A stretch of 64,000 bases of DNA from Nisaea sp. (GTDB taxonomy: Bacteria > Pseudomonadota > Alphaproteobacteria > Thalassobaculales > Thalassobaculaceae): the NCBI RefSeq assembly GCF_039990255.1, contig NZ_JBDXGG010000016.1, positions 94,958-158,957 of the forward strand. The letters run 5' to 3'. The notes under the pieces were generated by a model. It was given only the letters and a program-made list of their open reading frames with translations. It was not told the DNA's origin and did no database searches. Numbering within the stretch: position 1 is the first letter of the stretch; every line of letters begins with the position of its first letter. This document shows positions 7,706 to 58,936 of this stretch, piece after piece. A program made the translations under genes and the position numbers.

Positions 7706-8916
7706 CGGTCCCGGTCCACACGCTTGATCCAAAAAACCAGCGCGATCCCCAACAGGCCGAGTCCGATCATCGGCAGATGCCCGTTCGACCAACCCCCGAA
7801 ATAGGTCACCACCGTCGCGAAGATCGGCGCCGCCAGCAGGTTGCCAAGGTTGGAGCCGTGCACCACCACGCCGCTGCAGGTCGCGACCTCGGAAGCGGTG
7901 CGCGCATGCGCAGGCGCACCCGCAAGGCAGGCGGCAGGCAGAACACCGGATATACAGGACATGGCGATCGCGGCGGGCACCCGGAGGCTATCCGGAGCCC
8001 CACCCGCAAAGACGAACCAGGCCGTTCCCATGATTCCAAGAAAGCTGATGGCGATGATGAGCCAGCGCGGCACCTGCCGGTGCATCAGCCAGGCCGCACC
8101 AAGATTTCCAACAATGTTGATCAGCACCACAGCCGCGCCGATCAGAGCGGCGCCTTCGAGGGAATATCCCATCTGCTCGATCAAGAAGGTCGGCATCCAG
8201 GTCATCAGCGCGAAGATCGCGCAGGCATACAGAAAGAACGCCGTTGAGAAAAGATAAGGCCCCGGCAAGCGCAATGTCCCGAGCACTTGCTTGAAACCGC
8301 GCTCCCGGCTGGGCCGAGGCACACCAGGCCAGCGCGACGGCGCCGTCAGAAAAACCAGAACAACGGCGAAGAGAACACAGATGGCTGCATCCACAAGCCA
8401 GAGCCCGCGCCATCCGGCTGCGTTCATCAACACCGGCGCAACCACCATCGCGATGGCGGCGCCAATGGGGAAATAGGCAGACCAGAAACCAAGCGCCAGA
8501 GAGCGATGCATTGGCCTAGCGGCAGCAACGATCAGGGTCGGCGCGGCAATCGAGGTTGCAACAAAGCCAAGACTTTCCAGCGCCCGCCCGGCGAACAAGA
8601 CAAACATGGAGCTGGACGTTGCGCCGAGCGCCGAGCCAACCGCGATGACAAGCATCGCCGCAACCAACAGGCGGGCCGGCCCAATCCGATCCGTGGCCAT
8701 GCTGATCAGAATGGCGAACAGGGCCGCGAAAAGATGCAGCAGCGAGGCGAGCCAGCCGCCATCGACCAAGGAAAGATTCAGATCGGCCCTCAGGGCCGGA
8801 AGGGCGGGCGGGACTTTACCGACCTGAAGAGCTGCGACCACGCCCGCGCCGACGGCGAGAGCGACGATATCCCAACGAGTCCGGTCGTCAACAGCCGCTC
8901 CGCCGCCGTCGCTCAC
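7702..8916 (-). CDS. MFS transporter
   Basis: About 12 hydrophobic helices, polytopic throughout. The ORF opens at 8991 but overlaps rnhA. An in-frame GTG at 8916 forms a GTGA overlap with the rnhA stop. Confidence 0.75.
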
Positions 8917-9344
8917 GGTACGGCCAGACGCGCCAGCTCGTCTGCTCGCTCGTTTTCCGGATGACCGGCATGGCCCTTGACCCAGTGCCATTCGATCTCG
9001 TGCCGCTCGACCGCTGCCTCAAGGCGCTGCCAGAGTTCCATATTCTTCACCGGCTTCTTGTCGGCAGTGCGCCAGCCCCGCTTTTTCCAGCCGTGGATCC
9101 ATTTGGTGATGCCGTCGCGGACGTAGGTGCTGTCTGTATAGAGATCCACATGCATTGGCCGGGTCAGGGTTTCCAGCGATGTGATCGCCGCCATCATTTC
9201 CATGCGGTTGTTGGTGGTCTCTTTGTCGCCGCCGGAGAGTTCTTTCTCAGTATCGCCATAGCGCAGGATCGCGCCCCAGCCGCCGGGGCCGGGATTACCG
9301 CTGCAGGCGCCGTCCGTATAGATCTCAACCCGTTTCTTGGTCAT
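8913..9344 (-). CDS. rnhA: ribonuclease HI
   Basis: '[22 protein letters not shown]', 'TNNRMEMMA' and '[19 protein letters not shown]' match the RNase H catalytic DEDD pattern. 143 aa. Confidence 0.95.
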
Positions 9345-30392: not shown

Positions 30393-31151
30393 ATGCTACG
30401 TCTCGTTTGTTTTATCCTCGTGTTCGTCTGTTCAATTCCGCGCAGCGGTGCGGCCGACATCCCGGTCGATATGGAGCTGGTCCTTGCGATCGACTGTTCC
30501 TCCAGCGTGGATGACGAGGAATTCGCCCTGCAGGTATCCGGCATGGCCAACGCATTCCGCGACCCGATGATCCAGGACGCCATCCAGAACGGTGTTGAGG
30601 GCGCCGTCGGAATCTCCATCATCCAGTGGTCCAGCGAGCGCTTCCAGAATGTGGCTGTCCGCTGGCGCCTGCTGACCGGCCCCGCCGATGCGGACAATCT
30701 GGCGAACGAGATCGAGGCGATGCCGCGCACCATCGGCACCGGCGCAACGTCGATTGCCAATGCCCTGCTTTTCTCCGCGAACAGCTTCAACGGGAACGGC
30801 ATGGAGGGATACCGCCGGGTTATCGACATGTCGGCGGACGGCGAGAACAATCAGGGCCTCGATATTCATATCGCACGGGCGCAGGTTCTGGCTCGCGGCA
30901 TCACCATCAACGGACTGGCAATCCGGAATGAGTTCCCCAATCTCGACATGTATTTCGAGGACCGGGTGATCGGGGGCGAGAGAGCTTTTACCGAAGTGGC
31001 GAAAGATTACGAAGACTACCGAAACGCCATCTTCAGAAAACTTTTCCGCGAATTACGGGACGTCCCGGTTGCAGATGGGTCCGGCCTTGACCCATCATGG
31101 AAAGAGGCACTGCTGATGCAGCAGCCTGAGGAGCGGCTTCAAACGCGGTAA
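30393..31151 (+). CDS. DUF1194 domain protein (vWA-like), paralog 1
   Basis: Signal peptide. 'VDMELVLAIDCSSSVDDEEF' is a MIDAS-like DxSxS. 'RRVIDMSADGENN' and 'GITINGLAI' match the DUF1194 pattern. Confidence 0.8.
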   Translation: MLRLVCFILVFVCSIPRSGAADIPVDMELVLAIDCSSSVDDEEFALQVSGMANAFRDPMIQDAIQNGVEGAVGISIIQWSSERFQNVAVRWRLLTGPADADNLANEIEAMPRTIGTGATSIANALLFSANSFNGNGMEGYRRVIDMSADGENNQGLDIHIARAQVLARGITINGLAIRNEFPNLDMYFEDRVIGGERAFTEVAKDYEDYRNAIFRKLFRELRDVPVADGSGLDPSWKEALLMQQPEERLQTR

Positions 31152-31164
31152 TCAGGGTGATGGT

Positions 31165-31854
31165 TTGAAAATTCTGAAAACGGTTCTGGGCCTGCTCCTG
31201 CTCTGCGTCGGGCCATCTTCCGTTGCCCAGAGTGAATATCCCGTAGATGTCGAACTGGTGCTCGCCATCGATTCTTCCGCCAGCGTCGACCGCGATGAAT
31301 TCGATCTGCAACTGCGCGGCCTCGCTCTCGCTTTCAACGACCCAGAAGTGCAGCAAGCCATCCGGGACGGCGCCTTTCAGGCCATCGCGGTAACCTTGGT
31401 CGAATGGTCAAGCGTCGACCGTCAGGCGGTCAACATTCCTTGGCGCCTGATCAATAGCACCGAAAGCGCAGAAGCCTTCGCTGCGGATGTCGCCGCCTCG
31501 GCCCGCATGGTCGATACCGGCGCCACCTCGATCTCGGCCGCTATCGCCTACAGTGTGCCCATGTTCGCCGTGAACGGTTTCGCCGGCCAGCGCCAGGTGA
31601 TCGATATTTCTGGCGACGGCTTTAACAATTCCGGCCGGTTGATGCAGGAAGGCCGCGAGATCGCAAGCAATGCCCGCGTCACCGTCAACGGGCTGGCTAT
31701 CCAGAATCAGGTGCTGGATCTCGGCGGCTATTTCGAGGAAACCGTCATCACCGGCCCCGGCGCCTTCGTCATCACGGCCGAGGACTACGAGGATTACATC
31801 AAGGCGATCCGGCAGAAATTACTGCGGGAAATCAAGGCGGCGCCGATTTCCTAA
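31165..31854 (+). CDS. DUF1194 domain protein (vWA-like), paralog 2
   Basis: TTG start. Signal peptide. 'VDVELVLAIDSSASVDRDEF', 'RQVIDISGDGFNN' and 'VTVNGLAI' are collinear with paralog 1. Confidence 0.8.
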   Translation: MKILKTVLGLLLLCVGPSSVAQSEYPVDVELVLAIDSSASVDRDEFDLQLRGLALAFNDPEVQQAIRDGAFQAIAVTLVEWSSVDRQAVNIPWRLINSTESAEAFAADVAASARMVDTGATSISAAIAYSVPMFAVNGFAGQRQVIDISGDGFNNSGRLMQEGREIASNARVTVNGLAIQNQVLDLGGYFEETVITGPGAFVITAEDYEDYIKAIRQKLLREIKAAPIS

Positions 31855-31901
31855 CGGCATACGTTGTTATAGACAACGCCTCCGCCCTGCACCAATAGAT
31901 A

Positions 31902-31930
31902 TTGAAATTGCAAGCCTCTCATTCTATTAG
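31902..31930 (+). promoter_or_regulatory. candidate promoter for the islet genes
   Basis: TTGAAA (31902-07), a 17-nt spacer, then TATTAG (31925-30). This is a weak match and is speculative. Confidence 0.25.
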
Positions 31931-31960
31931 TGTATTTTTACCTTAACAAGATTGCCAAAA

Positions 31961-34471
31961 ATGTCCGAAATGACAAAGACGCATTACGACATAATCGTTA
32001 TTATCCCACTAGAAGAGGAACTAGTTTCTTTCTTAGAGGTTTTTCCGTCAATTAGAAATTTAAGCACTGAAATAGAATTTCGACATGAAGTAGATTCTAG
32101 AGAATCTGGACTTCGGATACTTGCAGTGCAGCAATTAGATATGGGCCGAACAAGCGCAATGACAGCAACAATTGGAGCCCTTACTGATTTTACAACTGAT
32201 CTAATAGTAAATATTGGGATCGCCGGCGGAATAACAAATGATTATGTTCTTGGCGATATTTGCTACAGTGGAAACATAATTGACTTATATGATAACTCAA
32301 AAATATCTGATACTGATACTGGCGAACAAGTCACAGAATATTCCCCAAACAATTTTGAGACCCCACAATGCATAACATCCGCGCTTAATTTTTCTAGGGT
32401 TCAGCCAGATTTCTTGGCTAAATATAAAGAATGGCAATCTGAGAGAGAAGTTTTTGTAAAATCGTTAGTAAGTACGAAAATTACAAATAGAGATGGCGAC
32501 GATATTGAAATTGGGAAACCCACTACGAAAAACGGTAAAATAACATGCGGCATCGTCAGCAAGAGCGACTTCTACAATAATAAAATCAAAGGAATTGATA
32601 GGCGCTCGCTCGCAATTGACACTGAATCTGGCGGAATATTTGAAATTGCAAAAAAATATAAAGTATCATGCCTAGCTATAAGAGGAATTTCTGACTACGC
32701 AGATAAATCAAAAAACAAACTGGAAAAAGCAACGGGTGGACAAATTCGTCGTATTGCGGCAACGAATGCCGCGTCGTTTTTCCGACTTCAGTTAATTAAT
32801 CCATATTTTTTAAATGCCATTCATATCGTCCACACACAGAATCACCCAGAACACTCTCTTAATTCATATGAACAAAAAAATGACCCGCTCATCAATCTAA
32901 TCGCGTCGTCGAGCCAAGAAATTAAGAACCACCTGGAAAGAACATGCCCCGAGTATAGGTTACATGAAAAAGGGTACAGCCTACCTGTACCGCGCGTCAT
33001 TCCAATGAACTTAAAAACGAAGGAAGAAAAAAGCAGCTCTCCTATCGAATTAAAGAAAACATTACAAACAAACGATCGTGTAATTATTAAAATACCTCAT
33101 ACATTTCCAGAAAAAAGCTTACCCTGGATTATAGCTGATTCACTAATTTCGAGCGAAATTGACGAACGACAAACCGTTCCCATCATCATTAATGCAGACA
33201 ACATTAGAGGAGCCTCTGATACCATTGAGAAACTCTCATCAAAAGAAGCTATTGAATTAGCGGAAAGTAAAAAAATAACTTTAGTCGTTGTTTTGTACGA
33301 CTTTAATCCAAAAACAAAACACAGAGCCAATCTTGTTATCGATCAAATTAATAAATTTTCAAATATAAAATTTATTATAATATCAAGTGGGGAAGGCGAT
33401 ATTTATACTGAATCAAATTTTGAAGATTTAATCAATGCTAAACCATTCAAAATGTGTGGAATTTCCTTCAATGAAGTGACATTTTTTGTCGAAAAGCATT
33501 TCGATATGTCGATCAACGAGGCAGAAGTTGTAGCACTTCGACTTCGAGATACATTTAGAAAATATGCACTTGATGCTCATCCAACATATTTCGCGGGCAT
33601 TTCTCGAGAAACACTTGCAACATTATTACAAGCAAACCGTCGTTCTGAACTTATCGAGCTCGCCGTTGCTGGATATCTATCTTTTGTTGTTGCTGGAGAC
33701 AAAGAAAGCATACGATTAAGTCGCACGACTCGCGCTCGTTTTTTGACAAATCTGCTGATTAAAATGAAAGTAAACGGGGAGACGTTCACACACTCTGAGC
33801 TAGTAAAATTTGCAGAAGATTTCGCTGTGGAAAGTGACTTCAACATAAATCCACTTCAATTCATAAAATCATTTGAAGATTTCGGCATATTACACTTTAA
33901 TGGAAATGGAGTACAGATATCACTTCCATTTATTGAATCATATTTATTAGCAAATGCCCTTAGTAAAGATAGCACTCTTTCTGCCAGATATATAAAATTT
34001 GATAATAGCTTCGTTGATTACGCGACACTTGATATATACTCAGAAATAGGACCTTCAACAGAGATAATAGAAAAACTGGTTACAGCAGTTGATGGATGTA
34101 TTAGTAAGCTTACAACGAACACTCCGGATAACGATTACTTATTGAGTGACGAAGCAACCGCAGCAGGATTAAAACACCCCAAGCGTCTAGAGGCACTGCA
34201 AAACAACCTAGAGGCGGCCTCTAAGTCTGTCCTAAGTGGTGCTAGAAACGCCGAAGAAAAACAGAAAATACTTGATGCTCAAGATTTCGTACGCCGCTCC
34301 GTATCTCATTCATCTCACGAAAAACAAGATAATTATGATGATGACGGGTTCGAAGCAGAAGCCGCTGAATTTGTCGAATGTGTCACAATTTGGGGAATTT
34401 CAGTAGTTGTACTAGGTGCTGGGGCCGAACACCTAAAAGCACCGATTAAAAGAAAATTAGGAAAAAAATAA
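31961..34471 (+). CDS. PNP_UDP (MTA/SAH-nucleosidase-like) domain protein fused to a degenerate P-loop NTPase-like module and a helical C-terminal region; candidate defence protein
   Basis: ORF 31952..34471, with possible starts at TTG 31952, ATG 31961 or ATG 31970. The N-terminus is collinear with MTAN: 'IIVIIPLEEE', 'DLIVNIGIAGG', 'AIDTESGG' and 'LAIRGISDYAD'. The centre has 'RVIIKIPHTFPEKSL' (Walker-A position), 'ITLVVVLYDF' (Walker-B position) and 'FIIISSGE'. Codon usage is AT-rich. Confidence 0.8.
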   Translation: MSEMTKTHYDIIVIIPLEEELVSFLEVFPSIRNLSTEIEFRHEVDSRESGLRILAVQQLDMGRTSAMTATIGALTDFTTDLIVNIGIAGGITNDYVLGDICYSGNIIDLYDNSKISDTDTGEQVTEYSPNNFETPQCITSALNFSRVQPDFLAKYKEWQSEREVFVKSLVSTKITNRDGDDIEIGKPTTKNGKITCGIVSKSDFYNNKIKGIDRRSLAIDTESGGIFEIAKKYKVSCLAIRGISDYADKSKNKLEKATGGQIRRIAATNAASFFRLQLINPYFLNAIHIVHTQNHPEHSLNSYEQKNDPLINLIASSSQEIKNHLERTCPEYRLHEKGYSLPVPRVIPMNLKTKEEKSSSPIELKKTLQTNDRVIIKIPHTFPEKSLPWIIADSLISSEIDERQTVPIIINADNIRGASDTIEKLSSKEAIELAESKKITLVVVLYDFNPKTKHRANLVIDQINKFSNIKFIIISSGEGDIYTESNFEDLINAKPFKMCGISFNEVTFFVEKHFDMSINEAEVVALRLRDTFRKYALDAHPTYFAGISRETLATLLQANRRSELIELAVAGYLSFVVAGDKESIRLSRTTRARFLTNLLIKMKVNGETFTHSELVKFAEDFAVESDFNINPLQFIKSFEDFGILHFNGNGVQISLPFIESYLLANALSKDSTLSARYIKFDNSFVDYATLDIYSEIGPSTEIIEKLVTAVDGCISKLTTNTPDNDYLLSDEATAAGLKHPKRLEALQNNLEAASKSVLSGARNAEEKQKILDAQDFVRRSVSHSSHEKQDNYDDDGFEAEAAEFVECVTIWGISVVVLGAGAEHLKAPIKRKLGKK

Positions 34472-34515
34472 TAGAACTTTCCGCACGCATAATAGATAAA
34501 TGGACCTCATATTCT

Positions 34516-35028
34516 TTGAGAATAAATTTCGACCGTTTTAGGGAAGAATTTTCAGACGAGGCTTTTCTACAGAAACTCCCCGGAGATGAAAGCATTGAGC
34601 AAAAGAGAAAATTCACGCTAAATTTGGTTGACCTTATGGAGATCGAGTCAAAGTCCTATCCGTTTAAAAAAATCTTAGGCTATGTATGTGAGCAGGCTCG
34701 ACAAAATGTCCTAGCCGAGAGCCTTAGAAAAATTGACGTCTCCGGCAAAGTCGAAAAAATTATTCACGGGTCTTGGCTTACTGATATTGAAGCAGATCAA
34801 GGAAAACACTTACTAAAAGATGCGATAAAAAATCTCCCACATGCAGCCCTTCTTCGAATGACTTTATGTTCTCTTTATCTACATCGTATCTATTGGTCGC
34901 ATTGGAAAAAAGACCATAAAATAACATTACTTGAAGCAGCAAACGATGCGATTCGACCGCTCGGGCGAGAAATTAGTGCTTCAGAAATGAAAAAATTGAT
35001 TAAAAGCGAACCTTCAGAAGATGATTAA
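34516..35028 (+). CDS. hypothetical protein: either the partner of the nucleosidase-domain protein or its frameshifted C-terminal continuation
   Basis: 170-aa ORF from a TTG at 34516, with the same AT-rich composition. Its frame is open back to 34450 and overlaps the end of the upstream ORF across an A7 run. The first ATG comes only at the 'MEIESK' codon. Confidence 0.5.
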   Translation: MRINFDRFREEFSDEAFLQKLPGDESIEQKRKFTLNLVDLMEIESKSYPFKKILGYVCEQARQNVLAESLRKIDVSGKVEKIIHGSWLTDIEADQGKHLLKDAIKNLPHAALLRMTLCSLYLHRIYWSHWKKDHKITLLEAANDAIRPLGREISASEMKKLIKSEPSEDD

Positions 35029-35077
35029 CTTCTATAATTCCACATGCAGAAAACGTTTAACTCTCTGATCCCATACT

Positions 35078-36127
35078 TCAACCGCGCACGCCTTCGAACC
35101 CATCCAGAAATGCCGCCAGATTATCCCCGAGCTGATCGGAGATATAACCGCCCTCCTGCACCAGCAGGCTCGGATACCCGGCCTCCGAGATCGTACGGCC
35201 CATGCGGCGGAAGCCTTCCGTGGTGATCTTGCAGAAAGCCAACGGGTCTGCCTCTGAAGCGTCGAGGCCGAGGGCGACGACCAGCACGTCCGGCTTGAAG
35301 GCGGCCACGCTTTCCAGCGCGTCGGCGAGAATTTCGATATAGGCATCGTCGCCGGTGCCCTGGGGCAGTGGGTAATTCACGTTGCACCCGGCCCCCTCGC
35401 CTTCGCCCGTCTCGTGGCCGAAGCCGGTGAAGAAAGGATAATAGGTTGCCGGATCGCCATGCAGGGAGACGGTCTGCACGTCGCCGCGCTCATAGAAGAT
35501 GCCTTGCGTGCCGTTGCCGTGATGCACATCCACATCGAGGATCGCGACCTTTGCCGCTCCCTTGTCCCGCAAGCGCTGGGCCGCGATGGCGGAATTGTTC
35601 AGGAAGCAGAAGCCGCCGGCCTGGTCCGCATAGGCATGGTGCCCCGGAGGACGGCAAAGAGCGTAGAGATAGGCTCCCCTGTTCCCACCGTCGATATCCT
35701 GCACCAAAATGTCAGCAGCGGTTACCGCGACATCTGACGAGGCCAGAGCGCCTTTCCAGGTCCCCTCTCCGATCGGGCAAGCCGTGTCCGCCTGATAATG
35801 GCCTGACTGGGCGACGATATGCTGAGGCGGCTGCGCCATGTTGCGGCCGGAATGCACGTTCGGGATAATCTCGTCCGCATGGTCCGGCAGCGCGCACCAG
35901 CGCTCCCAGGCATTCTCCAGAAAGTCGAGATAACCCGCATCGTGAATCCGGGCCACCGGGCTGGCGCCGTGCGTGCTGGCCGGGGTCAGATCATGGCCGG
36001 CATCCGTCGCCGCCTTGAAGAGGATCTCCGCCCGTTCCGGACGCTCCGGACTCTGCACGATGGCGCCCCGCGTTATGAAGCGTTTCGGGGCATGCACCAC
36101 ATGCCCGTCTGTATAAATCACTCGCAT
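35078..36127 (-). CDS. histone deacetylase family protein (acetylpolyamine/acetoin-type amidohydrolase)
   Basis: 'CRPPGHHA' and 'ILDVDVHHGNGTQ' are zinc-deacetylase motifs. 349 aa. Confidence 0.85.
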   Translation of the reverse strand: MRVIYTDGHVVHAPKRFITRGAIVQSPERPERAEILFKAATDAGHDLTPASTHGASPVARIHDAGYLDFLENAWERWCALPDHADEIIPNVHSGRNMAQPPQHIVAQSGHYQADTACPIGEGTWKGALASSDVAVTAADILVQDIDGGNRGAYLYALCRPPGHHAYADQAGGFCFLNNSAIAAQRLRDKGAAKVAILDVDVHHGNGTQGIFYERGDVQTVSLHGDPATYYPFFTGFGHETGEGEGAGCNVNYPLPQGTGDDAYIEILADALESVAAFKPDVLVVALGLDASEADPLAFCKITTEGFRRMGRTISEAGYPSLLVQEGGYISDQLGDNLAAFLDGFEGVRG

Positions 36128-58402: not shown

Positions 58403-58936
58403 TTACTTCTTCTTGCCTTCCTTGCGGAGGATGGTCTCGGTCTCGTACTTAACACCCTTGCCCTTGAAGGGCTCCGGCGGACGATACCCGCGGATCTCAG
58501 CCGCGATCTGACCAACCTTCTGCTTGTCGGCACCATGGATCGAAATCGCCGTCGGACGCTCACACTTCATGGTGATGCCTTCCGGGATCGGGTAGTTCAC
58601 CGGGTGACTGAAACCGAGGGCAAGAACCAGGTTCTTGCCTTCGACAGCAGCACGATAACCGACGCCGTTGATTTCCAGGTTGATCGTGAAACCGTCCGAC
58701 ACACCCGTTACAGCGTTCTGGACGCGAGCACGCATGGTGCCCCACATCGCCCGGGAACGCTTGGAGGCATTCTTCGGCTTCACGGTGACCAGGTTGTCCT
58801 CGATCACGATGTCTACAGCATCGCTGAGCGGAACAGAAAGCTGGCCGAGTTTGCCCTTCGCGGAGAAGACGTCAGCGCCGATTTCGGCGGTAACGCCGCT
58901 CGGAAGAGCGACTGGGTTTTTACCAATACGTGACAT
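58403..58936 (-). CDS. rplF: 50S ribosomal protein L6
   Basis: '[15 protein letters not shown]' and '[14 protein letters not shown]'. Confidence 0.97.

Follow-up and report, generated by a model that had tools for sequence, protein, structure and literature searches.

The locus described here raises the question whether a protein region that is laid out like the NTPase module of a STAND receptor, but whose loop at the Walker A position is devoid of glycines, is still such a module. The region lies in a stretch of 64,000 nucleotides from Nisaea sp. (contig NZ_JBDXGG010000016.1, positions 94,958 to 158,957 of the forward strand, in the following called the window), within an open reading frame (ORF) of 839 aa at 31952-34471 on the plus strand, with TTG 31952 as codon 1; the public annotation starts at an ATG three codons downstream of this TTG and gives 836 aa. 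A preliminary description, made from the letters and ORFs of the window, had regarded the region as STAND- or NACHT-like and had named two options for it, a degenerate, nucleotide-independent scaffold or an atypical P-loop. From predicted structures and the comparison of homologues we consider it very likely that the region is the core of a NACHT-like STAND module of the NLR type which has lost its P-loop, i.e. a pseudo-NTPase. The scaffold fits better than the atypical P-loop, because the loop carries an acidic residue, because the Walker B acid and the sensor-1 base have been lost repeatedly and because no lysine is kept.

The replacement of the P-loop is a property of the whole family and not of the window protein alone. 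We counted motifs in an alignment of 135 family representatives, of which about 130 cover the columns of the former P-loop. A canonical GxxxxGK[ST], which the preliminary description had proposed to look for among relatives, is present in none of these approximately 130 proteins, and there is neither a glycine-rich loop nor a conserved lysine. In its place, the family possesses a loop with the consensus P-[RK]-[TNS]-Y-P-D-x-[SGA]-L-[PAS]-W, in short Y-P-D-x-S-L-x-W (P in 98 proteins, R in 68 and K in 18, Y in 119 of 129, P in 124 of 130, D in 106 and E in 13, L in 111, W in 118, and A395 in 115). The K-S pair that had been described as a retained remnant of Walker A is indeed found in the window sequence. 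In the family, however, position 388 is a lysine in only 20 of 130 proteins (Q 21, R 16, L 11, N 11, D 10, H 8) and the pair is therefore incidental; S389 is moderately conserved (S 80, G 21, A 16). Judged by these columns, the former P-loop is under strong selection, for a motif other than Walker A.

The residues expected to serve hydrolysis are eroded. In the Walker B column an acid is found in 86 of 135 proteins (64%; D 62, E 24), N in 11 and Y in 8, and the window protein has Y449 there, with D450 one column later. At the end of strand beta4 (positions 478-479) the family shows [TS]-[RK], with R in 71 and K in 26 of 131 proteins (74%), and S478-S479 in the window protein; the losses of the basic residue (35 representatives) are scattered. 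The window copy thus lacks both the Walker B acid and the sensor-1 arginine of its family. The [TS]-R at the end of beta4 presumably fits the STAND sensor-1 signature hhh[TS]R; the criteria for the STAND superfamily are reportedly those laid down by Leipe et al. in 2004. Walker B acid and sensor-1 base are weakly associated (odds ratio 2.9, p = 0.013, uncorrected for phylogeny). The idea that D387 acts as a phosphate mimic paired with the sensor-1 residue R479 found no support, as the two do not covary (p = 0.29). Following beta3, there is a conserved S-[KR]-[TS]-[RK] at aa 455-458, with S in 112 proteins. Drifting hydrolysis residues next to a fixed new loop would be the pattern expected of a pseudo-NTPase.

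An AlphaFold2 model of aa 300-839 of the window protein, built on an alignment of 31 sequences, agrees with this assignment (predicted local distance difference test (pLDDT) 77.8, predicted template modelling (pTM) score 0.68, with pLDDT mostly 85-92 in the core). The core has the element order beta0, beta1, alpha1, beta2, alpha2, beta3, alpha3, beta4, alpha4, beta5: a first strand at 348-352, a helix, beta1 at 376-380, the loop at 381-389, alpha1 at 390-399, beta2 at 406-414, helices, beta3 at 442-449, alpha3 at 456-467, beta4 at 473-478, helices and beta5 at 497-501. A domain of four helices (506-581), three helices with a beta-hairpin (591-656) and further helices follow. The same core, helical domain and winged helix were obtained in a second model, of the 933-aa homologue P0002 (pLDDT 80.8). 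In these predicted structures the order of elements matches an ASCE/AAA+-type NTPase, in which the beta1-alpha1 loop carries Walker A, while Walker B belongs to beta3 and sensor 1 to beta4.

The four sequence strings on which the preliminary description was built are found exactly where it had placed them, and all four occupy the structural positions assigned to them. RVIIKIPHTFPEKSL (aa 376-390, nt 33077-33121) covers beta1, the loop and the start of alpha1 (376-399), ITLVVVLYDF (aa 442-451, 33275-33304) lies on beta3, KFIIISSGEG (aa 473-482, 33368-33397) on beta4, and FKMCGISFNEVTFFVEKHF (aa 499-517, 33446-33502), described as the helix after the core, belongs to beta5 and the first helix of the helical domain (497-517). 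Two details need correction. The strand taken for Walker B is the right one, but its register was one residue off, since the family acid aligns with Y449 and not with D450; and the spacings, given as about 55 aa from Walker A to Walker B and about 30 aa from there to sensor 1, amount to 61 and 29 aa. Neither a fold other than a P-loop fold nor a lack of conservation at these positions was found, and the proposed STAND/NACHT-like layout is borne out by the P-loop-type fold with its helical and winged-helix domains and by best matches among NACHT/NB-ARC NLRs and STAND proteins.

These matches were obtained by Foldseek searches against the PDB. For the window model, the top match is rabbit NOD2 (5irm; E 7.5e-6, 462 aligned columns), followed, with a probability of about 1, by the archaeal Walker-type ATPases 2qen/2fna, a wheat NLR resistosome and NLRP7; Cdc6/ORC1, MalT (8bob), clamp loaders and Avs4 (8dgf) are also matched with a probability of about 1. 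The centre of the P0002 model matches NOD2 (E 1e-6), NLRC4 (4kxf), RPP1 (7crc), NLRP3 (9hg4), NAIP5 and Avs4, and its N-terminus MTA/SAH nucleosidases. The best match in a viral library is a phage protein named NLR-family (E 2.6e-8), which has the highest TM-score of all (0.45). Alignments to NLRs such as NOD2 and NLRC4 span 462-929 columns and extend past the nucleotide-binding domain, helical domain 1 and winged-helix domain.

Along the window, the protein and the split gene that encodes it are organized as follows.

31952-34471, plus strand: ORF1 of 839 aa, with the effector, the presumed pseudo-NTPase STAND module and the first C-terminal helical part, ending at an early TAA (34469-34471)
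31991-32779, plus strand: N-terminal PNP_UDP_1 (MTAN-like nucleosidase) effector, aa 14-276, assigned by Pfam, PADLOC, mapping onto MTAN and MTAN fold matches
32972-32995, plus strand: conserved motif G-Y-x-L-P-x-P-R at aa 341-348, which precedes the former P-loop by about 35 aa
32993-33454, plus strand: alpha/beta core resembling a nucleotide-binding domain, aa 348-501, from AlphaFold2 secondary structure and Foldseek
33092-33127, plus strand: former Walker A loop, aa 381-392 (I-P-H-T-F-P-E-K-S-L-P-W)
33275-33301, plus strand: strand beta3 at the Walker B position, aa 442-450, from AlphaFold2 and the family alignment
33368-33388, plus strand: strand beta4 at the sensor-1 position, aa 473-479, from AlphaFold2 and the family alignment
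33464-33715, plus strand: helical (lid/ARC1-like) domain, aa 505-588
33716-33967, plus strand: winged-helix domain, aa 589-672, with a Pfam nSTAND_NTPase4 match at aa 611-665
33968-34468, plus strand: beginning of the C-terminal region (aa 673-839), which is all-helical, presumably the sensor, and includes a variable acidic linker
34462-34468, plus strand: A7 homopolymer, one nucleotide having been deleted from the A8 of the intact allele, with the frameshift and the early stop as a result
34450-35028, plus strand: rest of the C-terminal region in the -1 frame (ORF 34516-35028, 170 aa)

In its intact form, the protein unites effector, NOD and sensor in one polypeptide, with the PNP domain at aa 14-276, the STAND-like part at about 340-672 and a helical C-terminus that reaches to about 1,025 aa. 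Upstream of the core, P345, P347 and R348 of the G-Y-x-L-P-x-P-R motif are invariant or almost so in the family; we take this motif to be a counterpart of the one that precedes the P-loop of STAND proteins. Over the whole protein, conservation is highest in the helical and winged-helix region (aa 505-700). Conserved motifs of the helical domain are S-F..E....F..K.F, EAEVVALRLRDTF, AHP[ST]YFAGIP and ANRRxELIxLAV.G, and G549 and P544 are invariant. We also assume that the family's hhhhD-G/N-h-P after beta3, its hhh[TS]R and its G/D-I-S-F..E....F..K.F helix resemble the signatures of NACHT domains. Long helices make up the C-terminal region, in which no match of the TPR type was seen.

At the level of sequence, the winged helix provides the link to STAND proteins. 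Pfam PF24406 (nSTAND_NTPase4, 'Novel STAND NTPase 4') matches aa 611-665 of the window protein with 21.6 bits (E 2.3e-4), below its gathering score of 27, and it is found on the winged helix of 25 of 32 homologues (best E 1.2e-8) and of all 20 members that were deliberately chosen to be diverse. Many family members carry PF24406 as a precomputed annotation. This model has 58 positions, covers the winged helix and leaves the NTPase core outside; a literature search for the paper defining nSTAND4 did not find it. The strand-helix junction of the winged helix reads S-L-P-F-[IVM]-E and by eye contains no histidine (L658, P659 and F660 in at least 90%). In the alignment, the site of what we take to be the nucleotide-contacting histidine of NLR winged helices presumably appears as L-P-F.

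The N-terminal effector is recognized by sequence searches. PNP_UDP_1 matches aa 14-276 with E 1.5e-12 (47.8 bits, cutoff 25.1), and the PADLOC models for a PN-superfamily effector (1.4e-9) and PDC-M60C match the same domain. In an alignment with 101 PNP domains of the family, E12, E174, D197 and R193 of E. coli MTAN correspond to E23, E225, D248 and R244 of the window protein, and these four catalytic residues are invariant in 101 of 101 members. By its residues, the nucleosidase domain looks fully competent. It shares its fold and the Glu/Glu/Asp/Arg set with the immune ATP nucleosidases Cap17 and DtcC and with housekeeping MTAN. It is about equally weakly similar to MTAN and to the immune clade, and we assign it to neither clade and to no substrate. 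In CBASS (Cap17) and Detocs (DtcC), PNP domains of this kind serve as effectors with ATP/dATP nucleosidase activity, and Avs/NLR-like proteins of bacteria, fungi and corals carry such domains N-terminally (bioRxiv 10.1101/2023.01.24.525353).

A first search for relatives yielded 36 homologues with 35-47% identity. An exhaustive HMMER profile search of 1.84 billion representative proteins gave 255 matches at E ≤ 1e-3 (184 at E ≤ 1e-30), which approximately correspond to 255 family clusters at 50% identity. Most of these proteins have 1,015-1,060 aa, and the module occupies roughly residues 330-715. No relative that keeps a canonical P-loop emerged: the HMMER search of the 1.84 billion representatives returned the family only, and word-indexed profile searches with the whole module or with the winged helix alone gave nothing beyond it. 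The family is, as far as such searches define it, compact and sharply bounded.

Among reference genomes, the gene occurs in 43 species, nearly all of them labelled Alphaproteobacteria (Sphingomonadales, Hyphomicrobiales/Rhizobiales, Rhodobacterales, Acetobacteraceae), and about 35 of the 43 genomes possess an intact ORF of about 1,020 aa. The G+C content of the gene usually lies below that of its flanks (e.g. 0.42 vs 0.71); seen in other Alphaproteobacteria as well as in the window, this indicates repeated horizontal acquisition. The gene stands alone. No conserved neighbour was detected in the 43 genomes, where nothing recurs beside the gene except pieces of it, in disrupted copies, and serine recombinases. 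The 126 adjacent ORFs include eight resolvases and three integrases as well as type I restriction subunits, AbiEii, DUF4062, a type IV restriction endonuclease and GT4-conflict. Approximately one in six genomic copies is disrupted: L017 contains an inserted IS1595, and L025, L026, L033, L042, L046 and L047 are split or truncated; such frequent disruption is consistent with a costly gene that is often inactivated. In two genomes of Erythrobacteraceae (L009 and L012; at about 8070-9176) a DUF4062 protein is encoded directly downstream of the family gene. DUF4062 was recently reported as a defence NADase, 'NIR' (bioRxiv 10.64898/2026.09.04.749371).

In the window, the gene forms an island of 3.1 kb (31900-35050) with 36% G+C, whereas the rest of the window has 57-63%. 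The island consists of the 839-aa ORF and the following 170-aa ORF, which together are one split gene, a fact that had been overlooked in the preliminary description. Homologues run about 190 residues past the ...KRKLGKK* at which the first ORF ends, and their continuation is found in the downstream ORF in another frame, which is collinear with the C-termini of full-length homologues (LCEQAR..VLA.S, WL.DI....G, RVYW.HW). The break lies in the A7 run at 34462-34468, and one extra A restores an ORF of 1,025 aa in exact register with the relatives.

Four sequencing runs from a single study have the A7 form in their contigs, as do at least five database contigs, and a contig from an algal metagenome carries A8 and an intact gene. 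Compared to the window, this algal contig shows 99.4% identity over the 3.2 kb of the island (31860-35075; 19 substitutions, nine of them non-synonymous and ten synonymous), vs about 90% identity over the approximately 1.8 kb of its flanks (31000-31860 and 35075-36000; about 177 substitutions, i.e. about 10%). From this difference it follows that the island is far younger than the sequence around it, or that two related genomes have recently exchanged it at this locus. Since the intact A8 allele is only 19 substitutions away, the frameshift must be very recent. The window copy is probably switched off, as the change from A8 to A7 detaches the last ~186 residues. In other respects it is not unusually decayed, for it deviates at 8 of 104 highly conserved columns, mostly conservatively, which is close to the family mean of 6.3 +/- 4.3%.

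The sequence A_AAA_AAA_U (34461-34471) stands in the X_XXY_YYZ register directly before the UAA stop. A_AAA_AAA_U is a textbook -1 slippery heptamer. However, a downstream RNA structure that could stimulate programmed frameshifting was not detected (z = +1.0), and no reads of the locus were present in the four runs with the same species label, three of RNA and one of DNA. We regard the A run as probably a plain homopolymer lesion or a phase-variation site.

Taken as a whole, we think it probable that the family combines a nucleosidase effector, a nucleotide-free NLR-like scaffold and a sensor in a single-chain defence protein of about 1,025 aa, which has so far been seen in Alphaproteobacteria only. 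For the way in which it might act in anti-phage defence, the balance tips only slightly in favour of the following scheme. The protein would be a receptor of the Avs/bNACHT type. A trigger derived from a phage might bind to the C-terminal helical region and release autoinhibition, whereupon the STAND module, as a purely conformational scaffold, would change its conformation and oligomerise with no nucleotide being exchanged or hydrolysed. The PNP domains, clustered in this way, could then become active as a nucleosidase and use up ATP/dATP or a related nucleotide, and the infection would be aborted.

Several points weigh against this interpretation. The TM-scores of the Foldseek matches are low (0.2-0.45), because multi-domain proteins with differing domain orientation and conformation are compared, and residues of the loop and of P-loops were equated by the order of secondary structure elements, i.e. 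by topology and not by superposition. For 20 diverse modules, Pfam at E ≤ 10 returned PF24406 only and no NACHT (PF05729), NB-ARC or AAA model. When the PDB was searched by sequence and by profile, with the whole protein and the family profile as queries, all matches were PNP/MTAN proteins, so the STAND link is not obtainable in this way. Using hhalign, the family module gave no signal with E. coli MalT as a single sequence. As no profile or sequence search ties the core itself to any NTPase family, the STAND assignment rests on the predicted structures, with their 31-sequence alignment, and on the weak match of the winged helix. The strong conservation of the loop, together with the A-G-I-P motif of the helical domain, could also mean that the module continues to bind some ligand. 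Housekeeping genes account for many of the genomic neighbours, also in the window, and the gene copy in the window is frameshifted. Finally, defence, trigger, oligomerisation, substrate and the absence of nucleotide binding are inferred.

Some of these points lead to different explanations. If the loop, the S-[KR]-[TS]-[RK] motif, the residual sensor-1 arginine and A-G-I-P still formed an atypical pocket for a nucleotide or a small molecule derived from it, the module would be a ligand-gated switch. The loop ranks with the best-conserved stretches of the core, a result not to be expected from decay alone, and a basic sensor-1 residue in 74% of the proteins, the basic pair after beta3 and the invariant G549 and P544 would suit such a pocket. 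However, it would have no glycine for a phosphate anion hole and no conserved lysine, its loop residue is acidic (D or E in 119 of 130), D387 and R479 do not covary, and Walker B acid and sensor-1 base were lost independently in many sublineages, the window protein having neither, so that we consider a retained pocket rather unlikely. It is even less probable that the core is a generic AAA+ domain similar to ORC/Cdc6 or clamp loaders instead of a STAND/NLR module. Cdc6/ORC1, RFC, RuvB, MgsA and FtsH are indeed matched by Foldseek with a probability of about 1 and E 1e-5 to 1e-3, but the best and longest alignments are those to NLRs (462-929 columns vs about 300-380 for AAA+ proteins), the sole match at the sequence level is a STAND-family winged helix, the layout of effector, NOD and sensor with a death-type effector is that of Avs/NLR proteins, and the [TS]-R after beta4 presumably speaks for STAND as well.

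The frameshift gives rise to two further explanations. One could assume that the missing glycines simply reflect the decay of a dead gene in the source genome, in which the Walker B acid and the sensor-1 arginine are gone as well. This is hardly credible, as the glycine-less loop is common to all of the approximately 130 representatives, most of which are intact ORFs of about 1,020 aa (35 of 43 genomes), and as the divergence of the window copy at conserved columns is average, with an A8 allele 19 substitutions away. It is also possible, yet improbable, that the split gene still gives rise to a full-length protein by -1 frameshifting or transcriptional slippage, or works as two pieces, the A run being a phase-variation switch. 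A -1 slip at the A run leads exactly to ...GKKIIELSARIIDKW, in register with the homologues, and both A7, on four runs and at least five contigs, and A8 are natural alleles; against this, no stimulatory RNA structure and no RNA reads of the locus were found, no other family member that was examined requires a frameshift, most being single ORFs, and indels in homopolymers are the commonest route by which such genes are lost.

We therefore retain the nucleotide-free, NLR-like scaffold as the preferred explanation for the central module. An extension of it, to which we give only little credence, is that the former pocket was rebuilt from Y385, P386, D387, L390 and W392 together with S455-[KR]-[TS]-[RK]458, either as a plug that fills the pocket itself or as a receptor for a non-canonical ligand. 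In the case of the plug, this would be a natural NLR that oligomerises without any nucleotide. In the case of the receptor, the ligand could for instance be the substrate or product of the protein's own nucleosidase, which would imply feedback control.

Some parts of this picture have been known before, namely NLR-like proteins with PNP effectors, inactive STAND modules and the Pfam STAND tag on part of the family. With Avs/bNACHT proteins (Rousset et al. 2023, bioRxiv 10.1101/2023.01.24.525353; PMC13581612) the family shares the three-part layout, and like them it is encoded by a single, mobile gene, often near recombinases or defence genes, has a PNP-type effector and gives fold matches to NLRs and Avs4. 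It differs from Avs in that Walker A is replaced and Walker B and sensor 1 are eroding, whereas typical Avs proteins bind ATP and SeAvs7 needs nucleotide. The PADLOC models for Avs/NLR proteins did not match the central or C-terminal parts of the window protein. From the animal NLRs NOD2, NLRC4 and NLRP3, whose NACHT domains are the best structural matches, the family is set apart by the absence of GxxxxGK[ST] and of a Pfam NACHT match.

STAND modules with eroded motifs are not without precedent. The modules iSTAND and iSTAND2 and an inactive partner of nSTAND2 have been described, and the authors propose that they are receptors (PMC8195603; PMC7159879, Kaur, Burroughs, Iyer, Aravind); KpAvs8 has degenerate Walker motifs and is nevertheless activated by its phage target (PMC13581612). 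Common to iSTAND/iSTAND2, KpAvs8 and the present family is a STAND fold with eroded NTP-binding motifs that selection has retained in a context of conflict or defence. However, as far as a comparison by description allows, iSTAND and iSTAND2 are the third component of MoxR-vWA ternary systems, whereas the module presented here is a central NOD without a MoxR partner. What sets the present case apart is that, throughout a family of self-contained receptors, the central NOD carries the conserved Y-P-D-x-S-L-x-W in place of a P-loop.

The surroundings of the island belong to the host. Two DUF1194/vWA paralogues lie upstream, and a gene of the histone-deacetylase family and a carboxyltransferase lie downstream on the other strand. 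The upstream pair is a tandem (30393-31151 and 31165-31854) of DUF1194 proteins with a vWA fold, N-terminal hydrophobic segments and host-like G+C content; they are host genes with about 90% identity to the X5 strain, are not conserved beside the family and are probably unrelated to the island. A ternary system of the iSTAND type that includes these genes was considered and rejected, since there is no conserved partner and the vWA genes are unrelated host genes. Direct repeats of the att type, an integrase or a tRNA bounding the island were not found. Elsewhere in the window, ARAGORN predicts a 92-nt 'tRNA-Asp' with the anticodon ATC at 58426-58517 on the minus strand. Length and anticodon are unusual, and the likely explanation is a false prediction or a tRNA-like element that has degenerated.

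Two observations concern the source of the sequence. An identical gene (P0001; 100%, partial, on a 3.3-kb contig) has been deposited as part of a metagenome-assembled genome of 'Balneola sp.' (Bacteroidota-type). Because the other family members were found to be alphaproteobacterial and the window has 60% G+C, the low-GC island was probably mis-binned there. The locus was furthermore found in small sequencing runs whose organism label also covers 40-60 Gb of PacBio data and oligo-dT RNA-seq. Probably, the bacterium is an associate of a eukaryotic, perhaps algal, host rather than the organism named on these runs.

The practical value of these results is modest and lies in a better annotation of alphaproteobacterial genes that are listed as 'hypothetical protein' or 'nucleoside phosphorylase'. 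The family is also a cautionary case, for motif-based detection of STAND proteins overlooks families of this kind. Of wider interest is the switch itself. The on/off switch of NLR and STAND proteins is generally thought to be the exchange of ADP and ATP, and the family offers a natural test of whether the binding of a nucleotide is dispensable: every member examined lacks a P-loop, and the family is nevertheless under purifying selection and, by its residues, possesses a catalytically intact death effector. It would also add a branch of PNP-armed pseudo-NTPases to the pattern-recognition receptors of bacteria.

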